A DNA stretch of 64,000 bases. Source: Candidatus Bathyarchaeia archaeon (GTDB lineage Archaea > Thermoproteota > Bathyarchaeia > Bathyarchaeales > Bathycorpusculaceae). A program made the position numbers and the translations under genes. Where the stretch lies: the NCBI GenBank assembly GCA_038883775.1, contig JAVZLM010000004.1, positions 64,001 to 128,000 of the forward strand. Direction: 5' to 3'. The notes under the pieces are model-generated. The model did not search any database and was not told where the DNA came from. It worked only from the letters and a program-made list of their open reading frames with translations. Shown here piece by piece: positions 5,526-37,402 of this stretch (position 1 is its first letter; each line of letters starts with the position of its first letter).

Positions 5526-7756
<2,231 letters not shown>

Positions 7757-7764
<8 letters not shown>

Positions 7765-9004: not shown

Positions 9005-9040
9005 TTTGCGTTAAACGGTTTTGCTTTAAATTTGCGTTAA
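9005..9040. promoter_or_regulatory. Direct repeat TTTGCGTTAA x2 upstream of the Fd-MvhD/nfnAB operon; putative operator
   Basis: Identical 10-mers at 9005-9014 and 9031-9040; the same core recurs at 18135, 25281 and 27487. Confidence 0.4.
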
Positions 9041-18106: not shown

Positions 18107-18247
18107 AACATTATACTACAATTTAAATTAAACATAACGCAAAGATTTTCATAGTCTTTTTTCTATTTACGAATGGCTAAATTTAAATTATAGAAATGCG
18201 ATTATCTTTCTCTTTCATTGGAAAGCTTCACTTAGTTTGGTGATGAG

Positions 18248-19186: not shown

Positions 19187-20646
19187 AAGAAATAGTGATA
19201 AACCCAATTACGAGATTGGAAGGGCACGGAAAAATAACAATCTTCTTAAACGACGAAGGAAACGTAGAAGAAGCCTACTTCCAAGTCCCAGAACTTAGAG
19301 GCTTCGAAAAATTCTGCGAAGGAAGAAGAGCCGAAGACTTACCAATAATAACCACAAGAATTTGCGGAGTCTGCCCAGTAGCCCACCACATGGCAGGAGC
19401 CAAAGCCTTAGACGCTGCCTTTAATGTGGAACCTCCAGAAACAGCCAAAAAACTTAGGGAGCTCATGTATTGCGGTTATTACCTTTACGACCACACATTA
19501 CACTTCTACTATCTTGGAGCTCCAGACTTTGTCGTCGGACCAGACGCCCCTCCAGCGAAAAGAAACGTTCTCGGAGTGATAGAAAAGGTTGGTCTTGAAA
19601 TAGGCAAGGAAGTCATAAAACATAGGGCTTATGGACAAAAAATAACAGAAATATTGGGCGGTAAGGCAACCCACCCCGTAAGCGCTTGTGTTCCAGGCGG
19701 AATCACGAGACCATTGTCTGAAGAGGAAAGGCAAGAAATTGAGAAAATGGTGCGCAGCTTCATAGAATTCGCAAAGTTCACCCTCAAAATCTTTGATGAC
19801 GTTGTCCTAAAAAACACTAACTATGTAAACCTAATCAAAAGCGAACCCTACACCCTAAAAACCTATTACATGGGAACAGTTGACAAAAACAACCACGTAA
19901 ACTTTTACGACGGCAAAGTCCGCGTCGTAGACACGCAAGGAAAGGAATTCGTGAAATTCTCTTCAAAAGAATACTTAGACGTTATCGAAGAGCATGTTGA
20001 ACCATGGACCTATGTCAAATTGCCCTACCTAAAAAAGGTTGGATGGAAAGGACTAGTTGGCGGACAAGACAGCGGACTTTATAGAGTGGGTCCCCTTGGA
20101 AGACTCAACGCTGCGGAAGGAATGGCAACACCCATAGCCCAAGCAGAATACGAAAGAATGTATGAAACTCTCGGCGGAAAACCCGTCCATAATACTTTGG
20201 CTTATCATTGGGCTAGAGTTATAGAGCTAATGTATGCGGCTGAAAGAGCTTTAGAATTGATAACAGATCCGGAAATAACTGGAAAGGACATTAGAAACAA
20301 GCCTGGAAAACCAGGCGAAGGTGTTGGCATAGTGGAAGCAGCAAGGGGCACACTTATTCATCATTACCAACTGGATGAGAACGCTCTTGCCAAAAAAGTC
20401 AACTTGATAGTAGCCACAACACACAATGCACCAAGTATTTGCATATCCGTTAAAAATGCGGCAAAGAGCCTCATACAAAATGGCAAGGTTAATGATGGAA
20501 TATTAAACATGGTTGAAATGGCATTTAGAGCTTACGACCCATGTTTCGCATGTGCAACCCATTTTGCAGTTGGACAAATGCCGCTAACCATTGAAATTTA
20601 CAATCATGAAAGGCAATTGTTAAAAACTATAAGGAGGAAGGGGTGA
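19183..20646 (+). CDS. mvhA: [NiFe]-hydrogenase group 3c large subunit (copy 1)
   Basis: TRLEGH, L1 RICGVCPVAHH, EAARGTLIHHY, L2 AYDPCFACATH plus a cleavable C-terminal tail. Confidence 0.93.
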   Translation: MKEIVINPITRLEGHGKITIFLNDEGNVEEAYFQVPELRGFEKFCEGRRAEDLPIITTRICGVCPVAHHMAGAKALDAAFNVEPPETAKKLRELMYCGYYLYDHTLHFYYLGAPDFVVGPDAPPAKRNVLGVIEKVGLEIGKEVIKHRAYGQKITEILGGKATHPVSACVPGGITRPLSEEERQEIEKMVRSFIEFAKFTLKIFDDVVLKNTNYVNLIKSEPYTLKTYYMGTVDKNNHVNFYDGKVRVVDTQGKEFVKFSSKEYLDVIEEHVEPWTYVKLPYLKKVGWKGLVGGQDSGLYRVGPLGRLNAAEGMATPIAQAEYERMYETLGGKPVHNTLAYHWARVIELMYAAERALELITDPEITGKDIRNKPGKPGEGVGIVEAARGTLIHHYQLDENALAKKVNLIVATTHNAPSICISVKNAAKSLIQNGKVNDGILNMVEMAFRAYDPCFACATHFAVGQMPLTIEIYNHERQLLKTIRRKG

Positions 20647-23066
20647 AAATGGATAAGGTTAAGGTTGGCGTATTCCTTTCAGACTGCGGAAACCAAATAT
20701 CCCAAATCCTTGACTTCGAAGCCCTAATTGAATATGTAAAGGAAATTCCGGGGGTTGCGCTTGTTGCTAGAGCTAGCGAATTTTGGCGTGGCGAAGGATT
20801 AAAAACAATAGTCGAAGCCGTTAAAGGCAAAAAAGTAAACCGCGTTGTTGTGGCAGAAACAATTCCAAAACTAAGCGAAATAAACATTCTCGAGTCTGTG
20901 GAAAAAGCTGGGCTTAACCCATACTTAGCGGAGATAATAGACTTGAAAGACCATTGCGCATGGCCCCATAAAGACTCGCCAAAAGAAGCCACAGAAAAAG
21001 CTAAAGCAATGCTTTTGTCCGCCATTGAACGGGCTAAACTTCTCGAACCCATAGAGAAACTTGAGTTTCCAGCAACCAAATCCGTTTTGGTCATAGGCGG
21101 TGGCATAGCGGGAATACAAGCAGCTGAAGACTTGGCGGAAATGGGATTTGTAGTATATTTAATTGAGAAGGAACCATTCCTCGGAGGTTTGGCTGCCCGT
21201 GCTGGACGCTTCTTCCCCACTGATGATTGTGCCATATGCATACAGTCTCCAGCTTCAGACTTGAAAACTGTGACCCATACTTCCCGCAAATGCGTTTATC
21301 GTTCGGGGTTCACGGAAATTCCAAACCTAAACGTGCTAACAAATTCAAGGGTTCTAAAAGTTGAAGGAGTTCCGGGAAACTATAAGGTTACGATAGAGAA
21401 GAAGCCAAGATATGTTAATGAGGAAAAATGTGTTGCCTGCGACTTATGCACAACTGTTTGCCCAGTAGAAGTTCCAGACGCATATAATGCTAATCTTAAA
21501 AAACGCAAAGCCATCTACATAAACACGCCAATAGTTTATCCACCAGTCTACGCCATTGATGCCAGCGCCTGCAAATTTGACGAATGTGCCAAATGCGTGG
21601 AAGTTTGTCCAACAAAAGCTATAGAATTAAACCAGAAAAGCAAGAAAATGACGTTAAACGTTGGCAGCATAATAGTTGCCACGGGCTTTAAAGAGTATGA
21701 CCCAAGCGTAATAAAGGAATACCATTACGGTGAATACCCAGATGTAATAACCCAACTTGAACTGGCAAGGATGATTGACGGTTTTGGTCCCACAAAAGGC
21801 ATGATAATTAGACCTTCTGATGGAAAACCAGCAAAAAGAATAGTTTTCGTGCAATGTGTTGGTTCCAGAGATAGACGTTGGAACCCATGGTGTTCAAGCA
21901 TCTGCTGCATGATATCACTAAAACATGCTACGCTAATTAAATCGGCCTATCCAGACACTGATGTCACAATATGCTACATTGACATAAGAACAACTGGAAG
22001 AGAACACGAATACTATTACGAACGGGCAAGAGAGATGGGAGTAAAATTCGTGAAGGGTAGACCAACAGAAATTTTGCATGACCCAGAAGCGAACGTTTTG
22101 GTTGTTGATGTGGAAGATGAGCTTCTGCGAAGGTTCTTAGAATTGGAAGCTGATTTGGTGGTTTTGGCGCCTTCCATGGTTCCAGCGGATGGCACAAAAG
22201 AGCTTGCTGAAATTTTAGGTTTAGAATTGGACGAGGATGGTTTCTTTAAGGAATATAACGCCAAGCTTAGACCAACAGAAACCAAAAAGAGGGGAATCTT
22301 CCTTTGCGGCGGAGCCACATTTCCAAAGGATGCTCCGACAACATCCCTTCAGGCTCATTCAGCAGCTATGAAAGCCGCCAAGTTCCTTAACATGGGCAAA
22401 ATAGTTAAAGACCAGAGAACAGCTGTTGTAAATGAAGAGTATTGTGGCGACTGCGAATTCTGTCCGGTCACTTGTCCCTATGGTGCTATAACTTTGACTC
22501 CTAAAGGTGACGGGCATTTTGTTGCAAAAATATCCGACCTCCTATGCGAGGGATGCGGCGTCTGTGTAGGCACATGTCCGGTTAACGCTATTGAACTCCG
22601 ACATTCCAGACCAAACCAAATGTTAGCTCAAATGAGAGCTCTCCTCTCAATAAATGGAACATCAAAACCACTAGTTCTAGCCATAACCTGCTTAGAATGC
22701 GGAAATGCCGCTGTGGATTCTTCTGGCATGGCTATGATGCAGTATCCAGCCAACGTAAGAATAATGAGGGTTCCATGCACTGGAATTTTGCAAGTTCAGC
22801 AAATCCTTGAAGCCTTTAGGGCTGGCGCCCAAGGAGTCATGGTTGTTGGATGCAAAACCGACGGCTGCCACTATGAAATTGGGAGTCAAATAGCCCAAAG
22901 AAAAGTGGAATTGGCAAAAATGTTGCTTAAAGAGTATGGCATAGAACCCGAACGGCTGGAAATGTTCAACATGGTTTACATTGAAGGAGACAAATTCGCC
23001 GAAGCTGCAAAAATGATGACTGAAAGAGTAGAGAAACTTGGTCCCATCAAAATAACATCATCTTAA
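20643..23066 (+). CDS. hdrA: HdrA-MvhD fusion with a degenerate N-terminal Fe-S domain
   Basis: IGGGIAG, FPTDDCAIC, ferredoxin motifs, QCVGSRD..CSSICCM; C-terminal MvhD retains TCLEC, RVPCTG and GCKTDGCHY. Confidence 0.9.
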   Translation: MKMDKVKVGVFLSDCGNQISQILDFEALIEYVKEIPGVALVARASEFWRGEGLKTIVEAVKGKKVNRVVVAETIPKLSEINILESVEKAGLNPYLAEIIDLKDHCAWPHKDSPKEATEKAKAMLLSAIERAKLLEPIEKLEFPATKSVLVIGGGIAGIQAAEDLAEMGFVVYLIEKEPFLGGLAARAGRFFPTDDCAICIQSPASDLKTVTHTSRKCVYRSGFTEIPNLNVLTNSRVLKVEGVPGNYKVTIEKKPRYVNEEKCVACDLCTTVCPVEVPDAYNANLKKRKAIYINTPIVYPPVYAIDASACKFDECAKCVEVCPTKAIELNQKSKKMTLNVGSIIVATGFKEYDPSVIKEYHYGEYPDVITQLELARMIDGFGPTKGMIIRPSDGKPAKRIVFVQCVGSRDRRWNPWCSSICCMISLKHATLIKSAYPDTDVTICYIDIRTTGREHEYYYERAREMGVKFVKGRPTEILHDPEANVLVVDVEDELLRRFLELEADLVVLAPSMVPADGTKELAEILGLELDEDGFFKEYNAKLRPTETKKRGIFLCGGATFPKDAPTTSLQAHSAAMKAAKFLNMGKIVKDQRTAVVNEEYCGDCEFCPVTCPYGAITLTPKGDGHFVAKISDLLCEGCGVCVGTCPVNAIELRHSRPNQMLAQMRALLSINGTSKPLVLAITCLECGNAAVDSSGMAMMQYPANVRIMRVPCTGILQVQQILEAFRAGAQGVMVVGCKTDGCHYEIGSQIAQRKVELAKMLLKEYGIEPERLEMFNMVYIEGDKFAEAAKMMTERVEKLGPIKITSS

Positions 23067-23078
23067 CAATGGAGATAA

Positions 23079-23594
23079 ATGGAAATGGCACAACAAAAAA
23101 CCTCCCCAAAAAATTTTTCCAAAGAGATAACAAGCCGACTTGGCGGCGAAACAATAACCTTTTGCTATCAATGCGGAACATGCGCCAGCAGCTGCCCAGT
23201 TGCCAAAATTACGGAAAAGTTCAATCCAAGAGAAGTTATTAGACTGGCGCTTTTGGGAATGAGGGATGAGGTTTTAGCTGGCGATGCCATTTGGCTTTGT
23301 TCTTCATGCTACAACTGTCAAGAACGTTGTCCTCAAAAAGTGGAAATAGCTGATGTCATCTATGCCTTAAGAAATATAGCCATACGAGAAGGGCACATTC
23401 CAAACATTTATTCAGAGTTTGCAGCTGGACTAATGAGTGAAGGACGCATAGTTCCAATCTCCAAATTTTTAGAAAAGAAGAGACCAGAATACGGTTTGCC
23501 ACCCCTAAAACCAGCAGGAGTTGAAGCAATAAGAAAGATTCTTTCCGCCACTGGTTTTGACAAGATTCAATTCAAAAAAGGTGAGACGCCATGA
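23079..23594 (+). CDS. hdrC: Heterodisulfide reductase subunit C (copy 1)
   Basis: CYQCGTCASSCP, FNPR, IWLCSSCYNCQERCP. Confidence 0.92.
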   Translation: MEMAQQKTSPKNFSKEITSRLGGETITFCYQCGTCASSCPVAKITEKFNPREVIRLALLGMRDEVLAGDAIWLCSSCYNCQERCPQKVEIADVIYALRNIAIREGHIPNIYSEFAAGLMSEGRIVPISKFLEKKRPEYGLPPLKPAGVEAIRKILSATGFDKIQFKKGETP

Positions 23595-24466
23595 CCACAT
23601 ACGCTTTATTCCTCGGCTGCACGATACCAGCCCGCCAACCACACTATGAATTGTCTGCAAGGAAAGCCTTAACAAAATTGGGAATAGAACTTGTCGACTT
23701 AGATAATATGACATGCTGCGCTCCTCCACCATTGCAGTCAATAGATTTGGAAACAAGCTTGGCTATTGCCGCGCATAATATTTGTATAGCTGAAGAGGCA
23801 GACCTTAACATAGTTACTCTTTGCACGGGCTGTTTCGAATCCTTGGCGATGGCAAATGCCATTTTAAAAGAGAATGAAGAACTGAAAGCGAAAGTGAACA
23901 AAATCCTTTCCAGTGTCGGTAAAGAGTTTAAGGGCAACAAGGAAGTTAGGCATTACCTTCAAGTTTTGATGAATGATGTAGGCTTAAAGCGCTTAGAAAA
24001 GAGCGTAGTTAAAAAATTAAATAACTTGAAAGTGGCATCCTTTTCTGGTTGTCACCTTCTCAGACCCAGCGCGCTTTTAAAATTTGATGATCCAGAACGC
24101 CCACGAATATTTGATAGCCTCATTGAAGCCTTAGGCGCGAAAAGCATTTGGTATCGAAACAAGCTAAAATGTTGTGGAGGACTTTTGAGAGGCTATGCCG
24201 ATGATGTTGCCTTAGCCATCGCAAAAGACAAAATTGTAAACGCTACAAGAGCTGGCGCCGATTGCATATCAACCCTTTGTCCCTTCTGCTTCTTAACATT
24301 AGATCTGGGGCAGATGCTCATAAAATCCACCTACAAAGAAGAATACAACATGCCAATCATTCACTACTCTGAACTTCTAAGCCTAAGTTTGGGAATAGAC
24401 CCAAAAGAGCTTGCCCTTGACTTTCACAAGGTAAAAGTGGACCCGGTGCTGAAAAAATTAGGTTAA
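23591..24466 (+). CDS. hdrB: Heterodisulfide reductase subunit B (copy 1)
   Basis: FLGCTIP, TCCA, LCTGC, GCHLLRP, KCCGG, LCPFC: two CCG domains. Confidence 0.92.
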   Translation: MTTYALFLGCTIPARQPHYELSARKALTKLGIELVDLDNMTCCAPPPLQSIDLETSLAIAAHNICIAEEADLNIVTLCTGCFESLAMANAILKENEELKAKVNKILSSVGKEFKGNKEVRHYLQVLMNDVGLKRLEKSVVKKLNNLKVASFSGCHLLRPSALLKFDDPERPRIFDSLIEALGAKSIWYRNKLKCCGGLLRGYADDVALAIAKDKIVNATRAGADCISTLCPFCFLTLDLGQMLIKSTYKEEYNMPIIHYSELLSLSLGIDPKELALDFHKVKVDPVLKKLG

Positions 24467-24539
24467 GCCAAAAATTTCGTCTTTACAGATGGAAAGCGTT
24501 AATAGTTTGAAACTTCACCCAATTTTTGGGAAGCATAAA

Positions 24540-24737
24540 ATGAAAGTAGTTGCTTTAAAAGAGCATACTTGTTATTGTTGTGGAGAAACAATAAAAAAGG
24601 GTGAAGAATGCATCGCCTTATTTGTAAACCCTTCCAACCCAGCAAAAAACGAGTTTGATGTGATTTACACTTGTCTAAAATGTTTCGGAGAAGAAGCTTG
24701 CAAGCTTAGAATAGAGAAAAGGAAAGCAGTTCAATAA
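24540..24737 (+). CDS. Small zinc-finger-like protein
   Basis: EHTCYCCGETIKKGEE...TCLKC. Likely ATG at 24540, downstream of a BRE/TATA-like gaaagcgttaatag. Confidence 0.6.
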   Translation: MKVVALKEHTCYCCGETIKKGEECIALFVNPSNPAKNEFDVIYTCLKCFGEEACKLRIEKRKAVQ

Positions 24738-24741
24738 CGCT

Positions 24742-25215
24742 TTAGTTACTATTGTTTACTTTTGGAATGTAAACTTCAAAAGCCTCATTATTATTGCACT
24801 TCATAACCATATCTTCAATTTTTAAATGCTTAACTGGAAGGTTTAGTTTTTGGCATTCGTCAACGCAAACCTCTATTCCATTCGAGTCTTTGTGGCATTT
24901 TTTCTGGCAAATTTCTAAACCGTCCACACCTGTATGAAGTGTAACTTTTTGGTCCTTGCAGCGGCATTGCATCAATATCCTAACGTAGTTTTCATCTTCG
25001 AAAACATCAATTAATGGTTCTTCCAATTGCGGAAGGGGAATAAAATGTTTAACTGGGCTTGGTTCAACTTGTTCGCTTATTATGTATTTTCTGTAAAGAA
25101 GTCTTTCCATCGGTTCCACAACAACATCGCTCTTTTCTTCCTCTTCAGCAATCTTCCTAGCTAAGACCTTGCAGAAAACATCGATATTTCGTAATGCTTC
25201 TTCAAAATCATCCAA
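24742..25215 (-). CDS. Cys-rich Hsp20/alpha-crystallin-like protein
   Basis: EEPLIDVFEDENYVRI...LNLP...NNEAFEVYIPK follows the archaeal sHSP pattern; 8 Cys. Confidence 0.55.
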   Translation of the reverse strand: MDDFEEALRNIDVFCKVLARKIAEEEEKSDVVVEPMERLLYRKYIISEQVEPSPVKHFIPLPQLEEPLIDVFEDENYVRILMQCRCKDQKVTLHTGVDGLEICQKKCHKDSNGIEVCVDECQKLNLPVKHLKIEDMVMKCNNNEAFEVYIPKVNNSN

Positions 25216-25301
25216 GGTCTCGACGCCCTCTGTATTTATGTTATTTACTTTTATCCTTAAAAGGCTTCTTATGTTATAATTAACGCATAAACCATTTATG
25301 C

Positions 25302-26378
25302 TTACGCCTTCTTTTTCACTGGCAATGGTGCGGTTCGAACGTGCTTCACTACCCGGATAATATGCTCCACATCTTTTCTCGGCTGCTCCAACGCTCTGTT
25401 TATTGCTATATCTGCAATTGTCGCCCCTTTATCTGCAATCTTGTTCAGACAAGAAATATTCGCCCTTAAATATGGAATTTCAGGAGCTTCTCGCATAAGT
25501 TTTTCTGCCTCCATTTCCAACACATTCTTCATTTCCAACACTCCATTGGCAACTCTTAGGTCTCGTGTGAAGATGCAGTCTAAGGCTTTCTGGAAGATAG
25601 TCTGCGTTAACTCGCCCATATGATAAATCCTTTCCACAATCTCCTTTGGAATTCTATCTCTATAGGGTTCCAATTCGACAATTTTTCTGGCTATGTCCTC
25701 AGAATAGTCTGCGATTAACTCTAAATACTGCAATATTAAACGGGTGGCTGGAATGAAGAGGATGTCTGTTGCGCCTATTTGCTCTGCCACAGCGGGTTTT
25801 GCTTGTGCAGAAAGGAGCAGACGCACCGCCAAATAATAGATAGTGTCTGCTTCGTCTTCTCGGCTTACCGCCTCATTGGCTAAGGAATAATTTTTCTCCA
25901 AGAAAGCCTGCATGGCTTCAGACAAAATTGTTGAAGCAATTAGGGACAATCGTCTAATAAGCATGTCAATTTTAAACTTGGCTGGGTCCACGGAGCATTG
26001 CAACAAAATATTGTTTGGTGTTTCTTCCAGAATACCTAAACCAATGAGTTTCCGAACAATTCTCCGAATTTCATCCACATGCATCTTCCCTATTCTGCTT
26101 GAAGATGTTATCCTTATAACATCCCGTCCGAGAATGTAGCTTCCAACAATTATTCTTTCCAGCATGCCTTGCTCATCGCATGCGTCCGCATTTATTATGT
26201 ATTCTTCAGCTTCCTCTTTCAGCGCCATTTGACTTGGCACAATTTTTAATGTGCCGTCTCTTTCCGGGATGAGGAAAACAGGGTCTCCGGGGTTAATGTT
26301 GTTTTGTTTTGCCCATTCGCTTGGAAGCGAAACCGTCATTGTTGAGTATCCTACTTTTTGCACTTTTCTACTTTCCAA
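25302..26378 (-). CDS. Archaeal AbrB-domain/PhoU-domain regulator
   Basis: RKVQKVGYSTMTVSLPSEWA AbrB N-terminus, then PhoU helical repeats (EDEAD..Y, LELIADYSEDIA). Likely TTG start at 26378. Confidence 0.85.
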   Translation of the reverse strand: MESRKVQKVGYSTMTVSLPSEWAKQNNINPGDPVFLIPERDGTLKIVPSQMALKEEAEEYIINADACDEQGMLERIIVGSYILGRDVIRITSSSRIGKMHVDEIRRIVRKLIGLGILEETPNNILLQCSVDPAKFKIDMLIRRLSLIASTILSEAMQAFLEKNYSLANEAVSREDEADTIYYLAVRLLLSAQAKPAVAEQIGATDILFIPATRLILQYLELIADYSEDIARKIVELEPYRDRIPKEIVERIYHMGELTQTIFQKALDCIFTRDLRVANGVLEMKNVLEMEAEKLMREAPEIPYLRANISCLNKIADKGATIADIAINRALEQPRKDVEHIIRVVKHVRTAPLPVKKKA

Positions 26379-26417
26379 AATAGATTCCTTCGCATGGTAT
26401 TTACTATTATTTGTTTT

Positions 26418-26434
26418 ATATGCATTACGCATAT
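26418..26434. promoter_or_regulatory. Inverted repeat ATATGC-N5-GCATAT in the divergent AbrB-PhoU/DUF2061 promoter
   Basis: Perfect 6-bp arms overlapping a TATA-like tract. Confidence 0.35.
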
Positions 26435-26512: not shown

Positions 26513-26734
26513 ATGATAGAAAAACCTGTTAGAAGTTTAGTTAAAGCCATTTCTTGGCGAATTGTTGCAACCATAACCACTATACTCTTGGTTGTAGTTT
26601 TCAGTAAGGATTTGGCTTTGGGTACGATTGTGGGCATTACGGAACTTGTGGTGAAGACTATTGTTTATTATGTTCATGAGCGTGTTTGGAATTTGTCCAA
26701 CTTTGGTAGAGAAGTCAAAAGCAAAGTGCAGTGA
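26513..26734 (+). CDS. DUF2061-like small membrane protein
   Basis: RSLVKAISWR...YYVHERVW..FG signature with two hydrophobic segments. Confidence 0.8.
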   Translation: MIEKPVRSLVKAISWRIVATITTILLVVVFSKDLALGTIVGITELVVKTIVYYVHERVWNLSNFGREVKSKVQ

Positions 26735-26782
26735 TTATTTCAATGTCGTCTAAATATGGTATTTACTATTATAATTTATAAA

Positions 26783-26813
26783 TGCACTAAGTATATATTT
26801 AATTCTTGCACTA
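26783..26813 (+). promoter_or_regulatory. TGCACTA direct repeats flanking the TATA-like box of the RHH-GcvH gene
   Basis: tgcacta at 26783-26789 and 26807-26813, around tatatattta. Confidence 0.35.
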
Positions 26814-26847
26814 TATATCACTCAAGGTTAAAGGAGGTTGATAAAAA

Positions 26848-27450
26848 ATGACCGAAAAAACATCAGAATGGAAAACCGTAAGCATAAGACAAGAACTCAT
26901 AAAAGAAATAGAAGAAGCCATAAAAACAGGACGTTACCGAAGCATTTCGGAATTCGTCTCAGAAGCCATCCGCCTACGCTTAGAAGACCTAATGCGGGCA
27001 GAAGGAATCCCAATTGAAAAACGCAAAGAACTTTTAGCAAAACCAGAATTGCTACTCTACACGCCTAAACACACATGGGCTCAAATCACTCCTGAAGGAA
27101 ACATAAGAGTCGGCGTTTCCGAATATGCCCAAAAACACTTGAAAAGCATAGTTCGCGTATTAACCGAGCCAGTAGGAAAGGAAATCACCAAAATGGAGCC
27201 CTTCGGAGTTGCCGAAACCTGGATGTTCATGTTCGACCTTTACGCTCCAGTTAGTGGCAAAATAGTCAAGGTCAACGAGAAATTGAAGAACGAGCCCAAC
27301 ATCATAAACGAAGACCCCTACAATGAAGGATGGATTATTGAGATAAAGCCCAAAAACTCTTTGGTTCTGGAAGAGGAACTTAAAAAGTTACTTAGCGCAA
27401 GAGAGTACAACAAGTGGATAAGCAAGCTTGAAGGAAGATTACGCGAATAA
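26848..27450 (+). CDS. Ribbon-helix-helix DNA-binding domain fused to a glycine-cleavage H-protein-like domain lacking the lipoyl lysine
   Basis: WKTVSIRQELIKEIEEAIKTGRYRSISEFVSEAIR (CopG/RHH), then YTPKHTWA..VGVSEYAQ..DLYAPVSGKIVKVNE..INEDPYNEGWI (GcvH). The ESVK site reads ETWM. GGAGG SD. Confidence 0.85.
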   Translation: MTEKTSEWKTVSIRQELIKEIEEAIKTGRYRSISEFVSEAIRLRLEDLMRAEGIPIEKRKELLAKPELLLYTPKHTWAQITPEGNIRVGVSEYAQKHLKSIVRVLTEPVGKEITKMEPFGVAETWMFMFDLYAPVSGKIVKVNEKLKNEPNIINEDPYNEGWIIEIKPKNSLVLEEELKKLLSAREYNKWISKLEGRLRE

Positions 27451-27571
27451 TTTCCCATCTCCCCCTTTTTATTTGCTGCATTTTTGATGCGTTATAATTG
27501 TGTTAAGTTTAACTTAGGTGGCTTAATATATTAGGCTTATAAAACTTTACATAGGTAAAGCTGGTTCCATA

Positions 27572-29284
27572 ATGGCAGCTAAAACTGAAACAAAAGTGAG
27601 AAAACTTCCACCATGCCGCGCGGCATGCCCAGCCCATGTCAACGTTCAAGGATATGTAGCTTTGTTGCAAATGGGAAAATTCAAGGAAGCCGTTGAAATC
27701 ATAAGAAGGGACATGCCCTTTCCGGCAATATGCGGAAGAGTCTGCTTCAGCCCATGCGAAGATGCGTGTGCTAGAACCAACGTGGATCAAGCAGTAGCCA
27801 TACGCGCCCTAAAAAGACTTGTCGCTGATATTGAAAGAGAAACTGGAAGAGTGAAGGCAGAACCCATACCGAAAAAATACAGCGAAAAAGTCGCCATAAT
27901 AGGCGCAGGTCCAGCGGGTTTAACAGCAGCTTACGAGCTTGCAAAGCTTGGTTATCCAATAACAGTTTTTGAGCGAATGAGCGAGGCTGGCGGAATGATG
28001 CGTTATTGCATACCCGAATTTCGACTTGAAAAATTTGTTGTAGCCAACGAAATAGCCTACATAAAAGATTTAGGCGTCGAAATTAAAACAGGCGTGGAAT
28101 TTGGAAAAGACATAACTATCCAAAGTCTGCAAGATGAAGGTTACAAGGCTATTTTCTTAGCCATCGGAACACAACTGGGCATGAAGTTAAATGTACCAGG
28201 CGAAGATTTAGAAGGCGTGATAAACGCTGTTGACTTCTTGAGAGCTGTGAATTTGGGAGAACATGTTAAGGTTGGAGAAAAGGTTGCGGTTGTTGGAGGT
28301 GGAAACACTGCTATTGACGCTGCGCGCACGGCGAAAAAGCTTGACGCTAAAGAAGTTATGATATTGTATAGACGTTCCCGCGAAGAAATGCCAGCCTTGC
28401 CCCATGAAGTTGAATTGGCTGAGAAGGATGGAATAAAGTTCTATTTTCTTGTTGCTCCAAAACAGATTATAGGTGAAAATGGCAAGGTTAAAGCCATTGA
28501 ATGCTTAAGAATGCGGTTGGGCGAACCAGACGAAAGCGGAAGAAGACGCCCAATTCCAATAAGCTTTTCTGAACATCAATATGAAGTTGACATGGTGATT
28601 CCAGCCCTTGGACAAGTGGCAGAAATATCATGCATACCAAAAGAACTTCTAGACAAAGAAACAAGAGCTCCATCATTAAAAGTTGACCCAACAACCCTAG
28701 AAACAAACATGCCAGGCGTTTTCGCAGGAGGCGACATAGCCACAGGACCAGCAAGCATAATTGAAGCTGTAGGTGCTGGGAAAAGAGCCGCTGTTTCAAT
28801 TCACCGTTATCTTCAAGGGATAGATTTGCGAAGTGGAAGAGAAGAGGTTGAAGAAACAACATGGGTTAAAAACTGGGGATACATTAACAAAAAAGAACGC
28901 AGATATGAGCCTCCAGTGGAGAAGCCGCGGCTGAGTTTTGAGGAGGCAATGGAATATTTAGAAAAGATAAAACAGCAAGCCATGTTTGAAGCTTTTCGCT
29001 GCTTGGGATGTGGACCTTGCGCTGAATGCTTGGCAAACTTGGAATTATGTGAGGGTGACAAGGCTATTATTGATGAAACGTTATGTATAGGCTGCAATGT
29101 CTGCGCTGTCGTCTGTCCATTTGGAGCAATTAAAAAGAACGAAAAGGAAATCGCCCAAGTAAACGAAGACCTTTGCAAGGGCTGCGGAATTTGCGCGGCA
29201 AGATGCCCAGAACAAGCCATAACAATGAAGAAACTGCCAAACGAGAGAATTCTAAGCCTCGCTTTAGCAACTATTAAGGGGTGA
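27572..29284 (+). CDS. DsrL/HdrL-insert-like FAD/NAD(P)H oxidoreductase with C-terminal ferredoxin domains
   Basis: [56 protein letters not shown], two CxxCxxCxxxCP. Confidence 0.8.
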   Translation: MAAKTETKVRKLPPCRAACPAHVNVQGYVALLQMGKFKEAVEIIRRDMPFPAICGRVCFSPCEDACARTNVDQAVAIRALKRLVADIERETGRVKAEPIPKKYSEKVAIIGAGPAGLTAAYELAKLGYPITVFERMSEAGGMMRYCIPEFRLEKFVVANEIAYIKDLGVEIKTGVEFGKDITIQSLQDEGYKAIFLAIGTQLGMKLNVPGEDLEGVINAVDFLRAVNLGEHVKVGEKVAVVGGGNTAIDAARTAKKLDAKEVMILYRRSREEMPALPHEVELAEKDGIKFYFLVAPKQIIGENGKVKAIECLRMRLGEPDESGRRRPIPISFSEHQYEVDMVIPALGQVAEISCIPKELLDKETRAPSLKVDPTTLETNMPGVFAGGDIATGPASIIEAVGAGKRAAVSIHRYLQGIDLRSGREEVEETTWVKNWGYINKKERRYEPPVEKPRLSFEEAMEYLEKIKQQAMFEAFRCLGCGPCAECLANLELCEGDKAIIDETLCIGCNVCAVVCPFGAIKKNEKEIAQVNEDLCKGCGICAARCPEQAITMKKLPNERILSLALATIKG

Positions 29285-29291
29285 TAATTGA

Positions 29292-30047
29292 ATGGAAGCA
29301 GACAAATACAACATTGTTTGTTTCATGTGCAACTGGGCGTTCTGTGAAGAGGAAATGCAAATCCCATCAGACGTGAATGTTGTCCGCGTAATGTGTATTG
29401 GACGATTAGACCCAGTTCTAATTCTGGAAACCTTTGAAAAGGGCGTAGACGGCATCATGCTCGTTGGCTGCAAACCACCAGACTGCCACTACATTGACGG
29501 AAACCTTCACGCAGAACGTACCGTGAAAATGTTAAGAAAACTTCTTAAACTAACTGGCTTAGAAACAGAACGCATAAAACTCCTCTGGTATTCTCCCACG
29601 GACGAGAAAAGTTTTGGGAGTTATGCTAAAAAATTTTTGAAAGAAATTAAAGAAATTGGCTTTTCTCCACTAAGAAGAGAAGCGCCAAAATCTACACTTT
29701 TGGTTAATGTTCTAGCAGCTAAAAATGCCGCCTCAGACTTTAGGCTAAGGGTTTTGCTTGGAAGAGAAAAGGAGTTAACAGAAGGTGTGAACGTTTACGG
29801 CGAAAAATTGTCAGCAGAAGAGTTTGATGCTTTATTAGATGAAATTGTCACGGAAGAATTTGTTCGACACAAAATCCATGTTCTAACCAAAACCGAACCC
29901 CTCTCTGTGAAGGCTTTGGCTGATGTCCTTGAAATGAAAACTGCAAACGTTCTTAGGCACATTGTGAACATGCGCAGAAAAAACATGATAGCCCTAGACC
30001 ATGTGGAGGGCACAACTCCACTTTACAGGGCATTGGAGGTTAAATAA
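29292..30047 (+). CDS. MvhD-like [2Fe-2S] protein with a C-terminal winged-helix-like extension
   Basis: FMCNW, RVMCIGRLDP, VGCKPPDCHY; C-terminal PLSVKALADVLEMKTANVLRHIVNMRRKNMI. Confidence 0.8.
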   Translation: MEADKYNIVCFMCNWAFCEEEMQIPSDVNVVRVMCIGRLDPVLILETFEKGVDGIMLVGCKPPDCHYIDGNLHAERTVKMLRKLLKLTGLETERIKLLWYSPTDEKSFGSYAKKFLKEIKEIGFSPLRREAPKSTLLVNVLAAKNAASDFRLRVLLGREKELTEGVNVYGEKLSAEEFDALLDEIVTEEFVRHKIHVLTKTEPLSVKALADVLEMKTANVLRHIVNMRRKNMIALDHVEGTTPLYRALEVK

Positions 30048-30048
30048 A

Positions 30049-33000
30049 ATGACAGAAGAGAAAGTAGGAGCAGTTCTCGTTGTTGGCGGAGGAGTAGCGG
30101 GAATACAGGCGTCGCTGGATTTGGCGGATTCCGGCTTTAAAGTGTATTTAATTGATGAGGGGGCAAGCATTGGCGGAGTGATGGCTCAGCTTGACAAGAC
30201 ATTTCCAACAAACGATTGTTCAATGTGTATTTTATCGCCTAAGCTTGTGGCAACTGGGAGACACCCAAACATCACAATTTTAACTAACACTGAAATATTG
30301 GGTTTGAAGGGTGAGGCTGGAAACTTCGAAGTGAAACTTCGAAAACGTAGCCGTTATATAATCGAAGAGAAATGCAACGGATGTGGTTTATGCGCACAAA
30401 AATGTCCCATCGAAGCCGTGGACATGTATAATGAGGGTTTAAGCGAAAGAAGCGCAATTTACGTTGATTATCCCCAAGCGGTTCCACTAAAATACAAGAT
30501 TGACCGTGAAAAATGCATTGGATGCGGAACATGCTACGAAATCTGCAAAGCAAAGGCTGTAGCCTACGACCAACAAGACAGCGAAGCCACCCTAAAAGTA
30601 GGCTCAATAATCCTTGCGCCGGGATTTGAACCCTTCGACGCCAAATTGAAAAGTGAATACGGTTATGGACGCTACTTAAACGTGGTTACAAGCATAGAAT
30701 TTGAACGCATCTTAAGCGCTTCTGGACCTTACGGTGGACTTGTTTTAAGACCTTCGGATGGCGAAATTCCAAAAAAGATAGCGTTTATTCAATGTGTTGG
30801 TTCCCGCGATTATAAGCTTGGAAACAATTATTGTTCTGCTGCATGTTGCATGTATGGAATGAAAGAGGCAGTAATAGCAAAAGAACACACCCCGACGAAG
30901 TTGGATGCCACAATTTTCTATATGGATTTGAGGGCTTATGGAAAAGAATTCGATGCTTACTATGATAGGGCAAAGGAAGAGTGGGGCATACGGTTTGTAA
31001 GGTCAAGAGTGGCCTCAATAACAGAAGACCCATCCACTGGAAATCTTTTCGTTCATTACGTGGAGGATGAACAGCCTAAAACAGAAGAATTTGACATGGT
31101 CGTCCTATCCATAGGCATGCAACCGCCAAAAAATGTTGAAAAAATAGCCAAAGTTTTAGGCATAGAACTTAACAAATACAAGTTTTGCGAAACAAAAACT
31201 TTTTCACCATTAGAAACATCAAAACCCGGCATATTCGTCTGCGGAGCCTTCAGTGCACCAAAGGACATCCCAGAAAGCGTTGCCCAAGCAAGCGGCGCCG
31301 CAGCAAAGGCAATGAGCATAATTGCCAGTGAAAGAGGAAAGCTTGTAGCAGTTAAGGAATATCCGCCAGAAAGAGATATTAGCCAAGAAGAACCCCGCAT
31401 AGGCGTTTTTGTCTGCCACTGTGGCATAAACATAGGCGGAGTTGTTAACGTTCCAGAAGTGGTGGAATATGCAAAAACTTTGCCAAATGTGGTTTATGCC
31501 GAAGCCAACCTATACACATGCTCACAGGATACCCAGAAGCTGATTAGAGAGAAAATCCAACAATACAAACTTAACCGCGTTGTTGTAGCCTCTTGCACAC
31601 CGCGAACGCATGAGCCACTATTTAGAGAAACTGTTCAAGAGGCTGGCTTAAACCCATACCTGTTTGAGATGGCAAACATAAGAGACCAGTGCAGCTGGGT
31701 GCACATGCACGAGCCAAAAGAGGCAACAGAAAAAGCAAAAGACCTTGTCCGCTCGGTTGTGGCAAAAGCCAAACTTCTCAAACCACTGAAAAAGCCAGAG
31801 ATAAGCGTAACACCAGTAGGCTTAATCATAGGCGGCGGCGTCGCTGGAATGACAGCAGCCTTAGAACTGGCAAAACAAGGGTTTGAGGTGCATCTTGTTG
31901 AAAGAGAAAAGGAGTTAGGTGGGCACTTACGCAAAATTTACTATTTGTTGGAAGGCGAAAACCCAAAGGAAATTTTAGATGCGCTAATTAATGATGTTAT
32001 GGAAAATGGTAAGATACATGTCCATCTAAACTCGGAAGTAGCGGAAATCAGCGGATTTGTTGGCAATTTCAAATCAAAAATAAAACATAATGACGGCAAG
32101 GAAGAGGAAGTTGAACATGGCATAATAATAGTTGCCACTGGCGCAACAGAATACAAACCCACAGAATATCTTTACGGCAAAGACCCTCGAGTTATGACAC
32201 AGCACGAGTTGGAGGAAAAAATTGCAAAAGGCGACTTCAAAGCTAAAAATGTTGTCATGATTCAATGTGTTGGAGCAAGAAATGAAGAAAGACCCAACTG
32301 CGCAAGAATCTGCTGCGGACAAGCCATAAAAAACGCCTTAAAAATTAAAGAGATAAGCCCAGAAACAGAAGTTTACGTTTTGTATAAGGATATTCGCTCC
32401 TATGGCTTTAAGGAAGACTATTACCGCAAAGCCTCAGAAGAAGGCGTCCTATTCATAAACTACGAGGATGGCAGAAAACCGCAAGTTAGGAATGAGAAAG
32501 GAAAACTGGAAGTGACCTTCTGGGAACCCGTAATAAAGCAAGAAGTAACCATTGAACCAGATCTCGTAATCTTAAGCGCTGCCACAATCCCAAACCCAGA
32601 CAACAAACGAGTGGCAGAAATGCTTAAGGTGCCATTAACAAAAGACGGTTTCTTCTTGGAAGCGCACATGAAACTTAGACCCGTGGACTTTGCGACAGAT
32701 GGCGTTTTTCTGTGCGGAATGGCTCACTCGCCAAAATACATAGACGAAAGCATAGCCCAAGCTTGCGCTGCAGCAGCAAGAGCCACAACCATACTCTCAA
32801 AACCCACACTTGAGATGGAAGGGATTGTGGCAAACGTAAACGAAGATTTATGTAGTGGTTGTAGAATTTGTGAATATCTATGCCCATACGGGGCAATAGA
32901 AATGAAGCAAAAAGACGATAGGCTTATCGCAAACGTAATCGAAGCCTTATGCAAAGGCTGCGGCGCCTGTGGAACAGCATGCCCAACCAAAGCCATCACA

Positions 33001-33069
33001 ATGGGGCATTTCACAACAGAAGAAATCATAGCCCAAGTTAAAGCTGCGCTCTTGGAGGTTAAGGCATGA
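30049..33069 (+). CDS. hdrA: Tandem (two-FAD-domain) heterodisulfide reductase subunit A
   Basis: Two GGGVAG FAD motifs, FPTNDCSMC, internal IGVFVCHCG..ASCTPRTHE domain, C-terminal ferredoxins. ATG 30049 lies behind GGAGG; the track starts at 30001. Confidence 0.92.
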   Translation: MTEEKVGAVLVVGGGVAGIQASLDLADSGFKVYLIDEGASIGGVMAQLDKTFPTNDCSMCILSPKLVATGRHPNITILTNTEILGLKGEAGNFEVKLRKRSRYIIEEKCNGCGLCAQKCPIEAVDMYNEGLSERSAIYVDYPQAVPLKYKIDREKCIGCGTCYEICKAKAVAYDQQDSEATLKVGSIILAPGFEPFDAKLKSEYGYGRYLNVVTSIEFERILSASGPYGGLVLRPSDGEIPKKIAFIQCVGSRDYKLGNNYCSAACCMYGMKEAVIAKEHTPTKLDATIFYMDLRAYGKEFDAYYDRAKEEWGIRFVRSRVASITEDPSTGNLFVHYVEDEQPKTEEFDMVVLSIGMQPPKNVEKIAKVLGIELNKYKFCETKTFSPLETSKPGIFVCGAFSAPKDIPESVAQASGAAAKAMSIIASERGKLVAVKEYPPERDISQEEPRIGVFVCHCGINIGGVVNVPEVVEYAKTLPNVVYAEANLYTCSQDTQKLIREKIQQYKLNRVVVASCTPRTHEPLFRETVQEAGLNPYLFEMANIRDQCSWVHMHEPKEATEKAKDLVRSVVAKAKLLKPLKKPEISVTPVGLIIGGGVAGMTAALELAKQGFEVHLVEREKELGGHLRKIYYLLEGENPKEILDALINDVMENGKIHVHLNSEVAEISGFVGNFKSKIKHNDGKEEEVEHGIIIVATGATEYKPTEYLYGKDPRVMTQHELEEKIAKGDFKAKNVVMIQCVGARNEERPNCARICCGQAIKNALKIKEISPETEVYVLYKDIRSYGFKEDYYRKASEEGVLFINYEDGRKPQVRNEKGKLEVTFWEPVIKQEVTIEPDLVILSAATIPNPDNKRVAEMLKVPLTKDGFFLEAHMKLRPVDFATDGVFLCGMAHSPKYIDESIAQACAAAARATTILSKPTLEMEGIVANVNEDLCSGCRICEYLCPYGAIEMKQKDDRLIANVIEALCKGCGACGTACPTKAITMGHFTTEEIIAQVKAALLEVKA

Positions 33070-33506
33070 GTGAAAAAACAGAATTTGAGCCGAAAATAAT
33101 TGGTTTCCTATGTAATTGGTGCTCCTATGCAGGCGCAGACTTGGCTGGAGTAAGCAGAATCCAATATCCACCGAACATTAGAATAATTCGTGTAATGTGC
33201 AGTGGCAGAATTGACCCCATATTCATTCTCGAAGCTTTGAAGGATGGCGCTGATGGAGTGCTTGTTGCTGGATGCCATTTGCCCTCAGATTGCCATTATA
33301 TTAGTGGGAACTTTAAAGCTTTAAGAAGGATAACTCTATTAAAGAAAGTTCTAAAAGATTTCGGGATTGAACCTGAACGTGTGCGGTTGGAATGGGTCTC
33401 CGCAAGCGAAGGAGACAAGTTCGCCGCCATAGTTCGGGACATGGTTGAGCAAATAAAAAAGTTGGGACCAAACCCATTGAAAATGGGAGGAAAAAGGAAT
33501 GAGTGA
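33066..33506 (+). CDS. mvhD: Methyl-viologen-reducing hydrogenase delta subunit
   Basis: FEPKIIGFLCNWCSYAGADLAG, RVMCSGR, GCHLPSDCHY, WVSASEG. Confidence 0.95.
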   Translation: MSEKTEFEPKIIGFLCNWCSYAGADLAGVSRIQYPPNIRIIRVMCSGRIDPIFILEALKDGADGVLVAGCHLPSDCHYISGNFKALRRITLLKKVLKDFGIEPERVRLEWVSASEGDKFAAIVRDMVEQIKKLGPNPLKMGGKRNE

Positions 33507-34053
33507 AACACAGGAATATGTTCCAAGCGTTATAAAAGCTGAGGAAATGAATCCAAAATTCAAGTATGAAATTAGCAAGAAGCATGGCGCAGAGAGGCTA
33601 ATGCTTTGCTTCCAGTGTGGAACATGCACTGCTGACTGCCCAATCTCAAGATTCAGCGACTTTTACAGACCGAGAAAAATAGCGAGAATGGTGCAGTTGG
33701 GACTGAAGGATAGGCTTTTGTCAGATGAAGCCCTTTGGTTATGCTCATCATGTTTCACATGCGTTGACCACTGTCCTCAAGGGGTGGAAATTGCTGGCAT
33801 AGTGCGAGTTTTGCGAAACCTTTCGGTGAAAGAAAAAGGTGTCATGCCATTAGTTTACAGAGAACTTGCCTCTAACCTTTTGAAAGGCGGATATGTATAC
33901 GAAATTGTGGAGTCACGCCACAAAAAACGGGCGGAACTTGGGCTTCCACCATTGCCAAAGCCTAATCTTGAAGAAATTGCCAAAATTTTTGAAATTACTG
34001 GTTCTTCGAAAATGCTTGAAAATGTGAAAACTTTCGAGAAGGTGAAAAGCTAA
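33499..34053 (+). CDS. hdrC: Heterodisulfide reductase subunit C (copy 2)
   Basis: CFQCGTCTADCP, LWLCSSCFTCVDHCP. Confidence 0.92.
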   Translation: MSETQEYVPSVIKAEEMNPKFKYEISKKHGAERLMLCFQCGTCTADCPISRFSDFYRPRKIARMVQLGLKDRLLSDEALWLCSSCFTCVDHCPQGVEIAGIVRVLRNLSVKEKGVMPLVYRELASNLLKGGYVYEIVESRHKKRAELGLPPLPKPNLEEIAKIFEITGSSKMLENVKTFEKVKS

Positions 34054-34941
34054 ATGCCAAAATACTTGATATTTTTGGGATGCGTCATCCCGTATAGGCT
34101 TTCAAGCTACGAGATTTCTGCAAGAAAAGTTCTAGACAAGCTAGGCGTGGAATTGGTTGAAATGCCAACGTATAACTGTTGCGGGTATCCCATGGACGCA
34201 ATAAACCATGACTTAATGTTGACTTTGGCTGCACGAAACCTCTGCGTAGCAGAACAGCAAAACCTAAACATTTTAACCCTCTGCAATGGATGCTTCTGCA
34301 GTTTAAATGAAACAAACAAGATATTGAAAGAAGACAAGAAATTGCGGGAAGAAGTGAACGCTCATTTAAAAGAGATTGGCATGGAGTTTAAAGGAACAAT
34401 AGAAGTTAAACACCTCGTGCATGTGTTGGCTGAGGATGTTGGTTTTGAAAAGATAAAGAATGCGGTTAAAAAACCGTTAGCGAATCTTTTTGTGGCTCAG
34501 CATTCTGGATGCCACCTTGTTCGTCCAGCAAAATACGTAGGCCACGGCGAAGACCCAGAAAATCCCACTTTGCTTAAAAACTTGATTAGGCTCACTGGCG
34601 CCGAATGTTTAGATTACATGGATGAGACTCAATGCTGCGGAAATCCAATAATTGGCGTAAACGAAGAAGTCCCATTCCAGATGGCTAAAGAAAAACTTGA
34701 CCACGTTAGGGCTGTGAAGGCTCAAGCGTTAATTACGGCTTGTCCCTTCTGCCACATGATGTTTGACATGAACCAACCACGAATAGAAAGAGCCTTCAAC
34801 GAAAAGTTTGGCATACCAGTGCTGCACTATCCCCAACTTTTAGGCTTGGCCATGGGCTTTTCACCAGAAGAACTTGGAATAAACGAGCTTAGAGTTAAAC
34901 CATCCGAACTTTTAAACCAAATTCAAAAAGGAGAAAGCTAA
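34054..34941 (+). CDS. hdrB: Heterodisulfide reductase subunit B (copy 2)
   Basis: FLGCVIP, NCCG, LCNGC, HSGCH, QCCG, ACPFC. Confidence 0.92.
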   Translation: MPKYLIFLGCVIPYRLSSYEISARKVLDKLGVELVEMPTYNCCGYPMDAINHDLMLTLAARNLCVAEQQNLNILTLCNGCFCSLNETNKILKEDKKLREEVNAHLKEIGMEFKGTIEVKHLVHVLAEDVGFEKIKNAVKKPLANLFVAQHSGCHLVRPAKYVGHGEDPENPTLLKNLIRLTGAECLDYMDETQCCGNPIIGVNEEVPFQMAKEKLDHVRAVKAQALITACPFCHMMFDMNQPRIERAFNEKFGIPVLHYPQLLGLAMGFSPEELGINELRVKPSELLNQIQKGES

Positions 34942-34942
34942 A

Positions 34943-37377: not shown

Positions 37378-37402
37378 ACAGTTTCTCCTTATTTCATTTT
37401 GT

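Follow-up and report, generated by a model that had tools for sequence, protein, structure and literature searches.

The gene at 26848-27450 (+) in a stretch of 64,000 nucleotides (nt) from a Candidatus Bathyarchaeia archaeon (contig JAVZLM010000004.1 of assembly GCA_038883775.1; this whole stretch is called the window in what follows) codes for a protein of 200 amino acids (aa; the coordinates include the stop codon). The protein joins a ribbon-helix-helix (RHH)-like N-terminus to a domain with the fold of the H-protein GcvH that lacks the lipoyl lysine. The assignment uses the list of open reading frames (ORFs), Pfam, and NCBIfam. The RHH-like module (26875-26985 (+), aa 10-46) carries the motif G-R-Y-R-S-I-S-E-F-V-S-E-A-I-R, and the GcvH-fold domain occupies 27052-27423 (+) (aa 69-192). 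Within the latter, 27214-27237 (+) encodes a remodelled lipoyl hairpin, E123-T-W-M-F-M-F-D130, in which Met126 (codon 27223-27225) takes the place of the lipoyl Lys. The original prediction, made from the DNA letters, had described both the domain pair and this hairpin, and both descriptions hold, the first of them with an N-terminus that is RHH-like only. Its start of the element at 26783 has to be given up, as this is the first TGCACTA word of the promoter and the ORF begins at 26848. In public databases the protein is mostly called "glycine cleavage system protein GcvH" and less often "ribbon-helix-helix protein, CopG family."

Pfam GCV_H matches aa 69-192 with E 6.3e-32. The protein also passes the NCBIfam GcvH subfamily model NF002270 (124.6 bits for a cut-off of 117), but does not reach the cut-off of the equivalog TIGR00527 (104.8 versus 115.85), and the models TIGR03077 ("not_gcvH") and NF045810 match it far below their cut-offs. 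At the N-terminus, RHH_1 is borderline (aa 10-46, E 5.3e-4, 20.3 bits for a cut-off of 20.5). There are weak NCBIfam matches to the RHH models of ParD, NikR, and CdrS, among which the ParD-type antitoxin model TIGR02606 has E 2.7e-5, under its cut-off. RHH_1 is matched at E ≤ 0.01 by 18 of the 36 family members scanned. The profile of the family's N-terminus, compared with solved structures, has the RHH of H. pylori NikR as its top match (E 0.005), followed by ParD/CopG chains, and its motif G-x-Y-x-S-x-S-E-F-V-x-E-A-I aligns with G-Y-S-S-R-S-E-L-V-R-D-M-I of NikR. The translation of the window gene contains no cysteine, and the protein has neither an obvious metal site nor a His/Cys nickel cluster.

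An AlphaFold2 (AF2) monomer model built from a 36-row alignment of the family has a mean predicted local distance difference test score (pLDDT) of 85, with 87-97 per 10-residue block in the H-protein part. In Foldseek, this model matches solved H-proteins with target-normalised TM scores of 0.91-0.94 and root-mean-square deviations of 1.1-1.7 Å, 5a35 (GcvH-L) being a weaker match. A homodimer prediction with two copies scored 0.24 for a mark of 0.42 and counts neither for nor against dimerisation. The natural 417-aa protein P0121, which is a tandem pair read as one protein, served as a dimer stand-in. Its AF2 model is of low confidence (mean pLDDT 62, N-terminal segments below 50) because all the homologues aligned to its second half only. 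A search of the ESM Atlas returned only the family's own Bathyarchaeota clusters.

In HMMER alignments the hairpin ETWMFMFD lies opposite ESTKSVSD of 3ift (M. tuberculosis) and ESVKATSD of 1dxm (pea), with Met126 in the column of the lipoyl Lys; sequence identity to solved H-proteins is 37-40%. Outside the tip of the hairpin, the H-protein positions H75, W77, G89, G110, E123, P134, G137, N143, and W162 are kept, and the change is concentrated at the tip, where V-K-A has become W-[M/W]-F. A word-index protein search gave 836 matches at E ≤ 1e-3, the best 120 of which were inspected for the hairpin (196-202 aa, 83-100% identical, and from Bathyarchaeia or Bathyarchaeota where the organism is named). 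It reads ETWMFMFD in 117 of them, ETWMFVFD in two, and ETWMFIFD in one, that is, ETWMF[M/V/I]FD in 120/120. An exhaustive search of cluster representatives gave 7433 matches at the same threshold, and the best 150 were classified by alignment to the hidden Markov model of the family. An RHH-type N-terminus is present in 16 of these, including three N-terminal fragments, and Lys is found at the lipoyl column in none of the 13 fused clusters that span the hairpin. Their hairpins include ETWMFMFD, ETWMFKFD, ESWWFTRD, ETWLSTYD, ESWMFVHD, and ETVArwplVIHD. The 134 representatives without the RHH N-terminus divide into 105 with Lys and 29 without, the latter comprising several "ETW"-type hairpins, some fragments, and one type that derives from a split or frameshifted gene, as its second half.

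Because the 120 homologues listed all keep ETWMF[M/V/I]FD and no fused cluster has the Lys, the remodelling of the hairpin, as judged from these alignments, is neither a sequencing error nor an assembly artefact. This agrees with the earlier opinion that a single base error was unlikely. The fusion itself, for which an artefact of assembly had also been considered, recurs in conserved homologues, and the hairpin of the window gene is spanned by contigs from four sequencing runs (three studies of hot-spring metagenomes), which show no variant in 27214-27237 among the 40 differences listed (there are 99 further ones). Two runs that bear a metatranscriptomic label are flagged as probably DNA. The pattern of conservation indicates that the new hairpin is under purifying selection. 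The tip of the hairpin is the part of H-proteins that enters the partner enzymes (in complexes such as 3a8i and 3a7a), and an aromatic tip, if exposed, would point to a surface for docking or oligomerisation more than to a pocket for a small molecule.

The host genome (1.69 Mb, 91% complete) has a separate gcvH with a Lys-bearing hairpin (ESVKAVSD) at C1:38173-38532. The gcvT gene is on contig 1 and gcvP on contig 2, and neither adjoins the fusion gene. A true NikR is also encoded elsewhere (C3:100285-100512, NikR_C E 2.9e-29). The absence of a glycine-cleavage context, noted in the original prediction, is thereby upheld, but the companion statement that the window has no lipoate ligase fails at the level of the family, since one of the two BPL/LplA-family genes of the genome lies at 50836-51627. 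We read this BPL_LplA_LipB-family gene as a probable biotin ligase, because it sits in a biotin carboxylase/carrier cluster with the carrier motif EAMKME. No lipoate ligase adjoins the fusion gene. The GcvH name of the fusion protein looks like a systematic misannotation. Metabolic reconstructions that rely on this name or on the GcvH subfamily cut-off, which the protein passes, can credit Bathyarchaeia with a glycine-cleavage component that is unable to work.

The distribution of the fusion was analysed by running a profile of its specific N-terminus on 301 sampled genomes of Bathyarchaeia. The result is bimodal, with 31 matches at E ≤ 1e-25 in 24 genomes, all of the order of the window (11 in family f1, eight in f2, three in f4, and two in f5), and with all remaining matches, at E ≥ 2e-14, in short RHH ORFs that are not related. 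A member of the divergent cluster P0131 (hairpin ETTSNRLFVLF) carries the label Candidatus Baldrarchaeota. Three types of paralogues can be told apart by their hairpins: type 1 has ETWMF[M/K]F[D/E], type 2 combines E[ST]WWFTYD with a shorter C-terminus, and a third type has a 4-residue insertion (ETSARWPLVAHD) giving a tip of the ETSARWPLV kind. Tandem pairs in which a gene of type 2 or 3 precedes one of type 1 occur in G077, G118, G223, and two further Bathyarchaeia records. The fusion is split in one locus (L027, G062:C65, 1489-3243 (-)), where a 78-aa RHH ORF and a 122-aa Lys-less H-like ORF with hairpin ETWLFMFN overlap by 4 nt, directly preceded by genes of the DsrE, DsrE, and DsrH families. 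This may be a frameshift of the assembly or a true split, and the second half of this gene accounts for an apparent stand-alone form (P0127 type). A scan of metagenomes with the Lys-less forms P0124 and P0126, which look stand-alone, retrieved fused relatives only. As a separate observation, the RHH module has a 119-aa paralogue (MTKWKVIQVEQELADQIEKVLDKSKYQSLSEFVQEAIEKRL...) at L058 7910-8269 (-), some 600 nt beyond an AbrB-PhoU gene, in which a Cys-containing C-terminus replaces the H-protein fold.

The fusion gene lies directly upstream of an operon at 27572-37915 (+), as had been predicted. According to Pfam, the operon codes for a GltD/NfnB-like protein (570 aa), an MvhD with a helix-turn-helix (HTH)-like tail (251 aa), a double HdrA (1022 aa), MvhD, HdrC, HdrB, MvhG, MvhA, and a HycI protease. 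On the other side of the fusion gene, and on the opposite strand, is a gene for an AbrB (MazE-like)-PhoU regulator (25302-26432 (-); PhoU 1.6e-17, MazE_antitoxin 9.6e-10), and between both regulator genes lies that of a DUF2061 membrane protein (26513-26734 (+), E 2e-18), which is found at the same position in some lineages only (L039, L040, L042, L047, and L048). When the proteins of the window were mapped by tblastn on 24 related loci from 22 other genomes, the AbrB-PhoU gene proved the most constant neighbour, with 21 of them having it beside the fusion gene in divergent orientation. Of the other three, L045 ends about 300 nt upstream of the fusion gene, and L056 and L057 represent the second tandem pair in G118 and G223 and have no match to the window genes besides the fusion pair. 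The cluster of GltD-like, MvhD-tail, double HdrA, MvhD, HdrC, HdrB, MvhG, and MvhA genes follows on the same strand and in the same order in 17/24 loci. It follows directly in 13, behind a gene of about 1.1 kb with a TauE-like start in three (L049, L050, and L052), and without a GltD match of sufficient coverage in L051.

Five loci of genus g24 (L041 and L043-L046) differ in that the fusion gene is followed by TauE and then by a hydrogenase of another kind. In L043, TauE is followed by a 124-aa ORF, NuoE-like, NuoF-like, and NuoG-N-like genes, and the small and large [NiFe] subunits, and this set is a Hox-type NAD-linked [NiFe] hydrogenase without Hdr. Since these 5/24 loci carry TauE and a Hox-type hydrogenase and no Hdr, the common denominator of the loci is a cytoplasmic [NiFe]-hydrogenase operon together with AbrB-PhoU, and not Hdr as such. 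The same layout of AbrB-PhoU, fusion gene, and hydrogenase is found in the genome loci L058 and L060 and in the metagenome loci L061-L063. Homologues of the MvhD-tail protein are more widespread than the fusion-specific N-terminus (71 versus 24 of the 301 genomes), although this comparison is not a clean test of orthologs because the gene order differs in the six loci examined that lack the regulator. It provides a weak argument that the fusion may be dispensable for the enzymes and that its distribution would fit a regulatory rather than a catalytic role.

Several other genes of this region deserve mention. The second gene of the operon, the MvhD (FlpD) gene at 29292-30047 (+), has a C-terminal tail of about 125 aa with weak HTH matches (HTH_20 E 6e-4 and MarR_2 E 0.09, both below cut-off), and this full-length form is kept in related loci. 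One possibility is a protein with a redox cluster and a tail of DNA-binding type, encoded within an Hdr operon. Two small genes, at 24489-24737 (+) and 24742-25215 (-), accompany the AbrB-PhoU/fusion pair in many related loci; they code for an 82-aa Cys-rich protein and a 157-aa protein and have no significant Pfam family. Between 5526 and 24466 the window contains further modules of Hdr/Mvh type, namely MvhD-2x[4Fe-4S] with PyrK-like and GltD-like genes (5526-8986 (-)), an HdrC/B-like fusion (11647-12756 (-)), HdrA-MvhD (12857-15226), and MvhG-MvhA-HdrA(MvhD)-HdrC-HdrB (18248-24466), an unusual density of paralogous bifurcating-type complexes. Among them, a 931-aa protein (15311-18106 (+)) combines CoA_binding, Succ_CoA_lig, and ATP-grasp_5, as in ADP-forming acyl-CoA synthetases, with a C-terminal GNAT acetyltransferase, which is the architecture of Pat-type protein acetyltransferases.

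The fusion gene has a promoter module at 26759-26820 (+), composed of GTATTTAC (26759-26766), TGCACTA with TATATAT (26783-26798), and TGCACTA/TATATATCA (26807-26820). In an alignment of about 110 nt from 23 promoters, taken ahead of the fusion gene or, in tandem pairs, ahead of the leading gene, the conserved elements are RTATTTAC, then GCAYTA-NN-TATATAT with T26792 to T26798 invariant, and, about 13 nt past this first TATATAT, a second element TATATATCA with A26813, T26814, A26815, and A26817 invariant. Closer to the gene, TAAAGGAGG is conserved 7-10 nt ahead of the start codon, and the columns of the ribosome-binding site GGAGG (26833-26837 (+), 10 nt before the ATG) are nearly invariant. 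The original prediction pointed to TGCACTA repeats around the TATA-like box. Two copies 24 nt apart are indeed there, in a window where the word is scarce (three observed versus 7.15 expected), but as a conserved word TGCACTA does not survive the comparison. Only the first copy is kept across the 23 promoters, as GCAYTA or ACGTTA, and the second is variable; the invariant columns lie in the two TATATAT elements behind the copies. The 49-nt promoter core, turned into a position weight matrix (PWM), reaches 49.7 bits here, and no other site of the 1.69-Mb genome exceeds 4.1 bits. We take the first TATATAT as the probable TATA box. The second would be an operator or start-site element at the putative transcription start, which is a typical place for a repressor or autoregulator to act.

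Just past the stop codon, a C-run followed by oligo-T (27461-27474 (+)) forms a terminator-like element that is present in 12/12 aligned intergenic regions. Then comes the predicted promoter of the downstream operon (27488-27531 (+)), with direct repeats at 27488-27506, an inverted repeat at 27502-27513, and a TATA box TTAATATAT at 27523-27531. The direct repeats are TGCGTTA / GTTAT-N6-GTTAA, 11 nt apart, and the inverted repeat is GTTAA-GT-TTAAC. The corresponding promoters of family f1 (12 loci) have direct repeats (R)YGTYAW-N4-GYGTYAW, with GTYA(A/T) cores 11 nt apart and often with an inverted TTRAC, and TTAATATA is invariant in them about 45 nt before the start of the GltD-like gene. In L047, both repeats are GTCAA and the inverted half is TTGAT, i.e., they co-vary. 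The WTGCGTTA-type repeats proposed at the outset as sites for the regulator are therefore conserved ahead of the operon in this family and can be kept as candidate sites, assignable equally to the fusion protein or to AbrB-PhoU. For the operon-promoter module, a PWM gives 55.9 bits at this locus, with 13.7 as the highest value in the rest of the genome. In family f1 these elements point to two units, the fusion gene transcribed by itself and the operon transcribed from a separate promoter with candidate operators. As a further remark on the repeat, TGCGTTA occurs 12 times in the window versus 7.3 expected, a count of at least 12 being reached in 7/100 shuffles, and five copies fall in intergenic promoter regions (9007-9039, 18135-18141, 25281-25287, and 27488-27494). 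Two copies precede the minus-strand MvhD-ferredoxin/NfnAB-like operon (7757-8986 and downstream), and single ones are found before the MvhG/MvhA/HdrA operon (18248), between the gene of the 157-aa protein and AbrB-PhoU, and before the GltD/Hdr operon. TGCGTTA may thus be a shared operator of redox operons.

Taken with its neighbours and promoters, the fusion gene probably codes for a NikR-style one-component regulator in which a degenerate H-protein would act as sensor or oligomerisation domain. The reading as a one-component regulator follows from the NikR plan of an RHH with a C-terminal globular domain, and a regulatory role fits because there is an RHH-like module, because a conserved promoter and an oligo-T stop set the gene apart, and because it is paired with AbrB-PhoU in 21/24 loci. 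In such a regulator the N-terminal module would dimerise and read DNA, and the C-terminal domain would set the oligomeric state, receive a signal, or both, the H-protein fold standing in for the metal-binding tetramerisation domain of NikR. The H-protein domain keeps its fold, and with V-K-A replaced by W-[M/W]-F it should be unable to carry lipoate; we infer that the hairpin serves as a docking or sensing surface. The protein would most likely control its own unusually conserved promoter and, together with the divergent AbrB-PhoU, the adjacent cytoplasmic [NiFe]-hydrogenase operon, which is of the Mvh/Hdr type in this genome and of the Hox type in a sister family. We regard this as plausible and backed by strong comparative evidence, with DNA binding, the target operon, the signal, and autoregulation as its predicted parts. 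The original prediction had gone one step further and made the pseudo-H-protein a sensor for Hdr or thiol metabolism. The one-component regulator fits the architecture, the promoter, and the synteny, but the proposed signal does not, given that five of the 24 loci are of Hox type without Hdr and that the window protein has no Cys. Nickel sensing was considered as well and rejected, as there is no His/Cys cluster and the genome has a true NikR. Because of the missing Cys and the NikR encoded elsewhere, both thiol and nickel sensing are unlikely.

Some observations weigh against such a regulator. The RHH_1 score of the window protein is just under the Pfam cut-off, and half of the family members scanned (18/36) miss E 0.01 for this model. 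The AF2 monomer has two helices at the N-terminus, with the N-terminal segment modelled as helix too, and no RHH strand, the ribbon of this fold being an element of an intertwined dimer that a monomer model is unable to display. The lack of Cys and of an obvious metal site suggests no sensing chemistry. The regulon pattern RYGTYAWNNNNGYGTYAW, drawn from the operon repeat, has three matches in the genome versus four in the control, so that no operator can be assigned from it, and the PWM scans of the genome find both promoter modules at this locus only, which defines no regulon. Co-transcription with the enzymes may occur in L053-L055, where no AT-rich promoter intervenes between the fusion gene and the adjoining GltD-like gene. 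Finally, the Hdr cluster that contains the MvhD-tail homologue has another arrangement in the six genomes examined that lack the regulator.

Among the alternatives, one keeps the RHH repressor and gives the H-protein fold no ligand at all. It would be a mere scaffold for the assembly of a dimer of dimers, much like the C-domain tetramer of NikR, and any signal would come through AbrB-PhoU. The two direct repeat elements 24 nt apart in the gene's own promoter would suit two RHH dimers held on a C-terminal core, and the constant pairing with AbrB-PhoU and the absence of Cys and of a metal motif point the same way. So does the variation of the hairpin among paralogue types (ETWMF, E[ST]WWF, and ETSARWPLV), which is easier to accommodate in an interface than in a ligand pocket. 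However, the type 1 hairpin is invariant in the 120 homologues listed, and the distinct hairpins of tandem paralogues rather resemble surfaces that determine specificity, which leaves this account unlikely, though a serious one. It is quite unlikely that the protein is instead an accessory, adaptor, or assembly factor of Hdr/hydrogenase complexes, a relative of LbpA-like carriers without lipoate whose N-terminal helices form a protein-protein module. The AF2 monomer without an RHH strand would agree with it, as would the abutment to the operon in L053-L055, the split form of G062 beside DsrE/DsrE/DsrH genes, and the reported work of GcvH-like LbpA proteins with Hdr-like complexes in sulfur oxidisers. 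Yet the N-terminal profile matches RHH DNA-binding domains first, the gene in family f1 has its own promoter and oligo-T stop, the context alternates between Hdr/Mvh and Hox hydrogenases, and every fused member that spans the hairpin lacks the carrier lysine (0/13).

A long shot, in which regulation and docking meet, is that the protein mimics a carrier: the W-[M/W]-F hairpin would dock into a site of an Hdr/hydrogenase-associated enzyme that normally takes a lipoyl- or GcvH/LbpA-type carrier arm, and the partition between free and bound regulator would tell the promoter whether the complex is occupied or what its redox state is. If true, a dead cofactor-carrier domain would have been turned into a partner-switch, and the substrate of the non-methanogenic Hdr complexes of Bathyarchaeia would be a protein-bound dithiol (a lipoyl protein). 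A genuine H-protein of glycine cleavage, as in the public annotation, has in its favour the NF002270 score and the name given by the sources, but is hardly credible with no lipoyl Lys, a missed TIGR00527 cut-off, and a separate Lys-bearing gcvH in a genome where gcvT and gcvP are not adjacent to the fusion. An RHH antitoxin of a type II toxin-antitoxin pair, suggested by the weak ParD-type matches, is just as improbable, for the flanking genes (DUF2061, AbrB-PhoU, and GltD-like) include nothing toxin-like and their context is conserved across the 24 loci.

The NikR-style regulator that we favour resembles several known systems without coinciding with any of them. It shares with NikR an N-terminus that is RHH-like, a beta-rich globular C-terminus, and a link to [NiFe]-enzyme genes. 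The C-terminal domain of NikR, however, which is the core of its tetramer, is NikR_C and not GCV_H, and the fusion protein lacks the His/Cys nickel site. With GcvH it has the fold and over a third of its residues in common, and it differs by the W-M-F tip, the extra 65-residue N-terminus of DNA-binding type, and the absence of a glycine-cleavage context. LbpA of the sHdr systems provides another parallel, as a GcvH-like protein encoded beside Hdr-type genes, and one split form of the fusion even lies beside sulfur-relay genes (DsrE/DsrH). In contrast to the fusion protein, LbpA is reported to keep the lipoyl Lys and to be lipoylated, and it has no DNA-binding module. The Hdr genes at this locus are of the MvhD/HdrABC-hydrogenase type, and the setting of LbpA (sHdr genes, a dedicated lipoate ligase, and sulfur transferases) is not that of the neighbours of the fusion gene. 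The GcvH-L proteins of Streptococcus and Staphylococcus, TIGR03077, and NF045810 are likewise H-protein paralogues outside glycine cleavage, but they are stand-alone carriers without an RHH module, and GcvH-L is reported to be lipoylated. The original prediction knew of no characterised example of the fusion, and full-text searches of the main text of papers available without subscription found no description of an RHH-GcvH fusion. On the favoured reading it would be a one-component RHH regulator in which the fold of a dead lipoyl carrier makes up a novel C-terminal domain.

The Hdr/Mvh and Hox hydrogenases are at the core of the H2-dependent metabolism proposed for Bathyarchaeia, and we know of nothing on their control in these uncultured organisms. 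The fusion gene, its AbrB-PhoU partner, and the two sharply conserved promoters offer concrete, testable parts of this regulation. If the fusion protein is a regulator, it would be a clear example of a cofactor-carrier domain taken over, after the loss of its cofactor site, as the part of a transcription factor that does not bind DNA. If its hairpin docks on an Hdr-linked enzyme, it would be a pointer to the physiological substrate of the Hdr complexes of non-methanogens.

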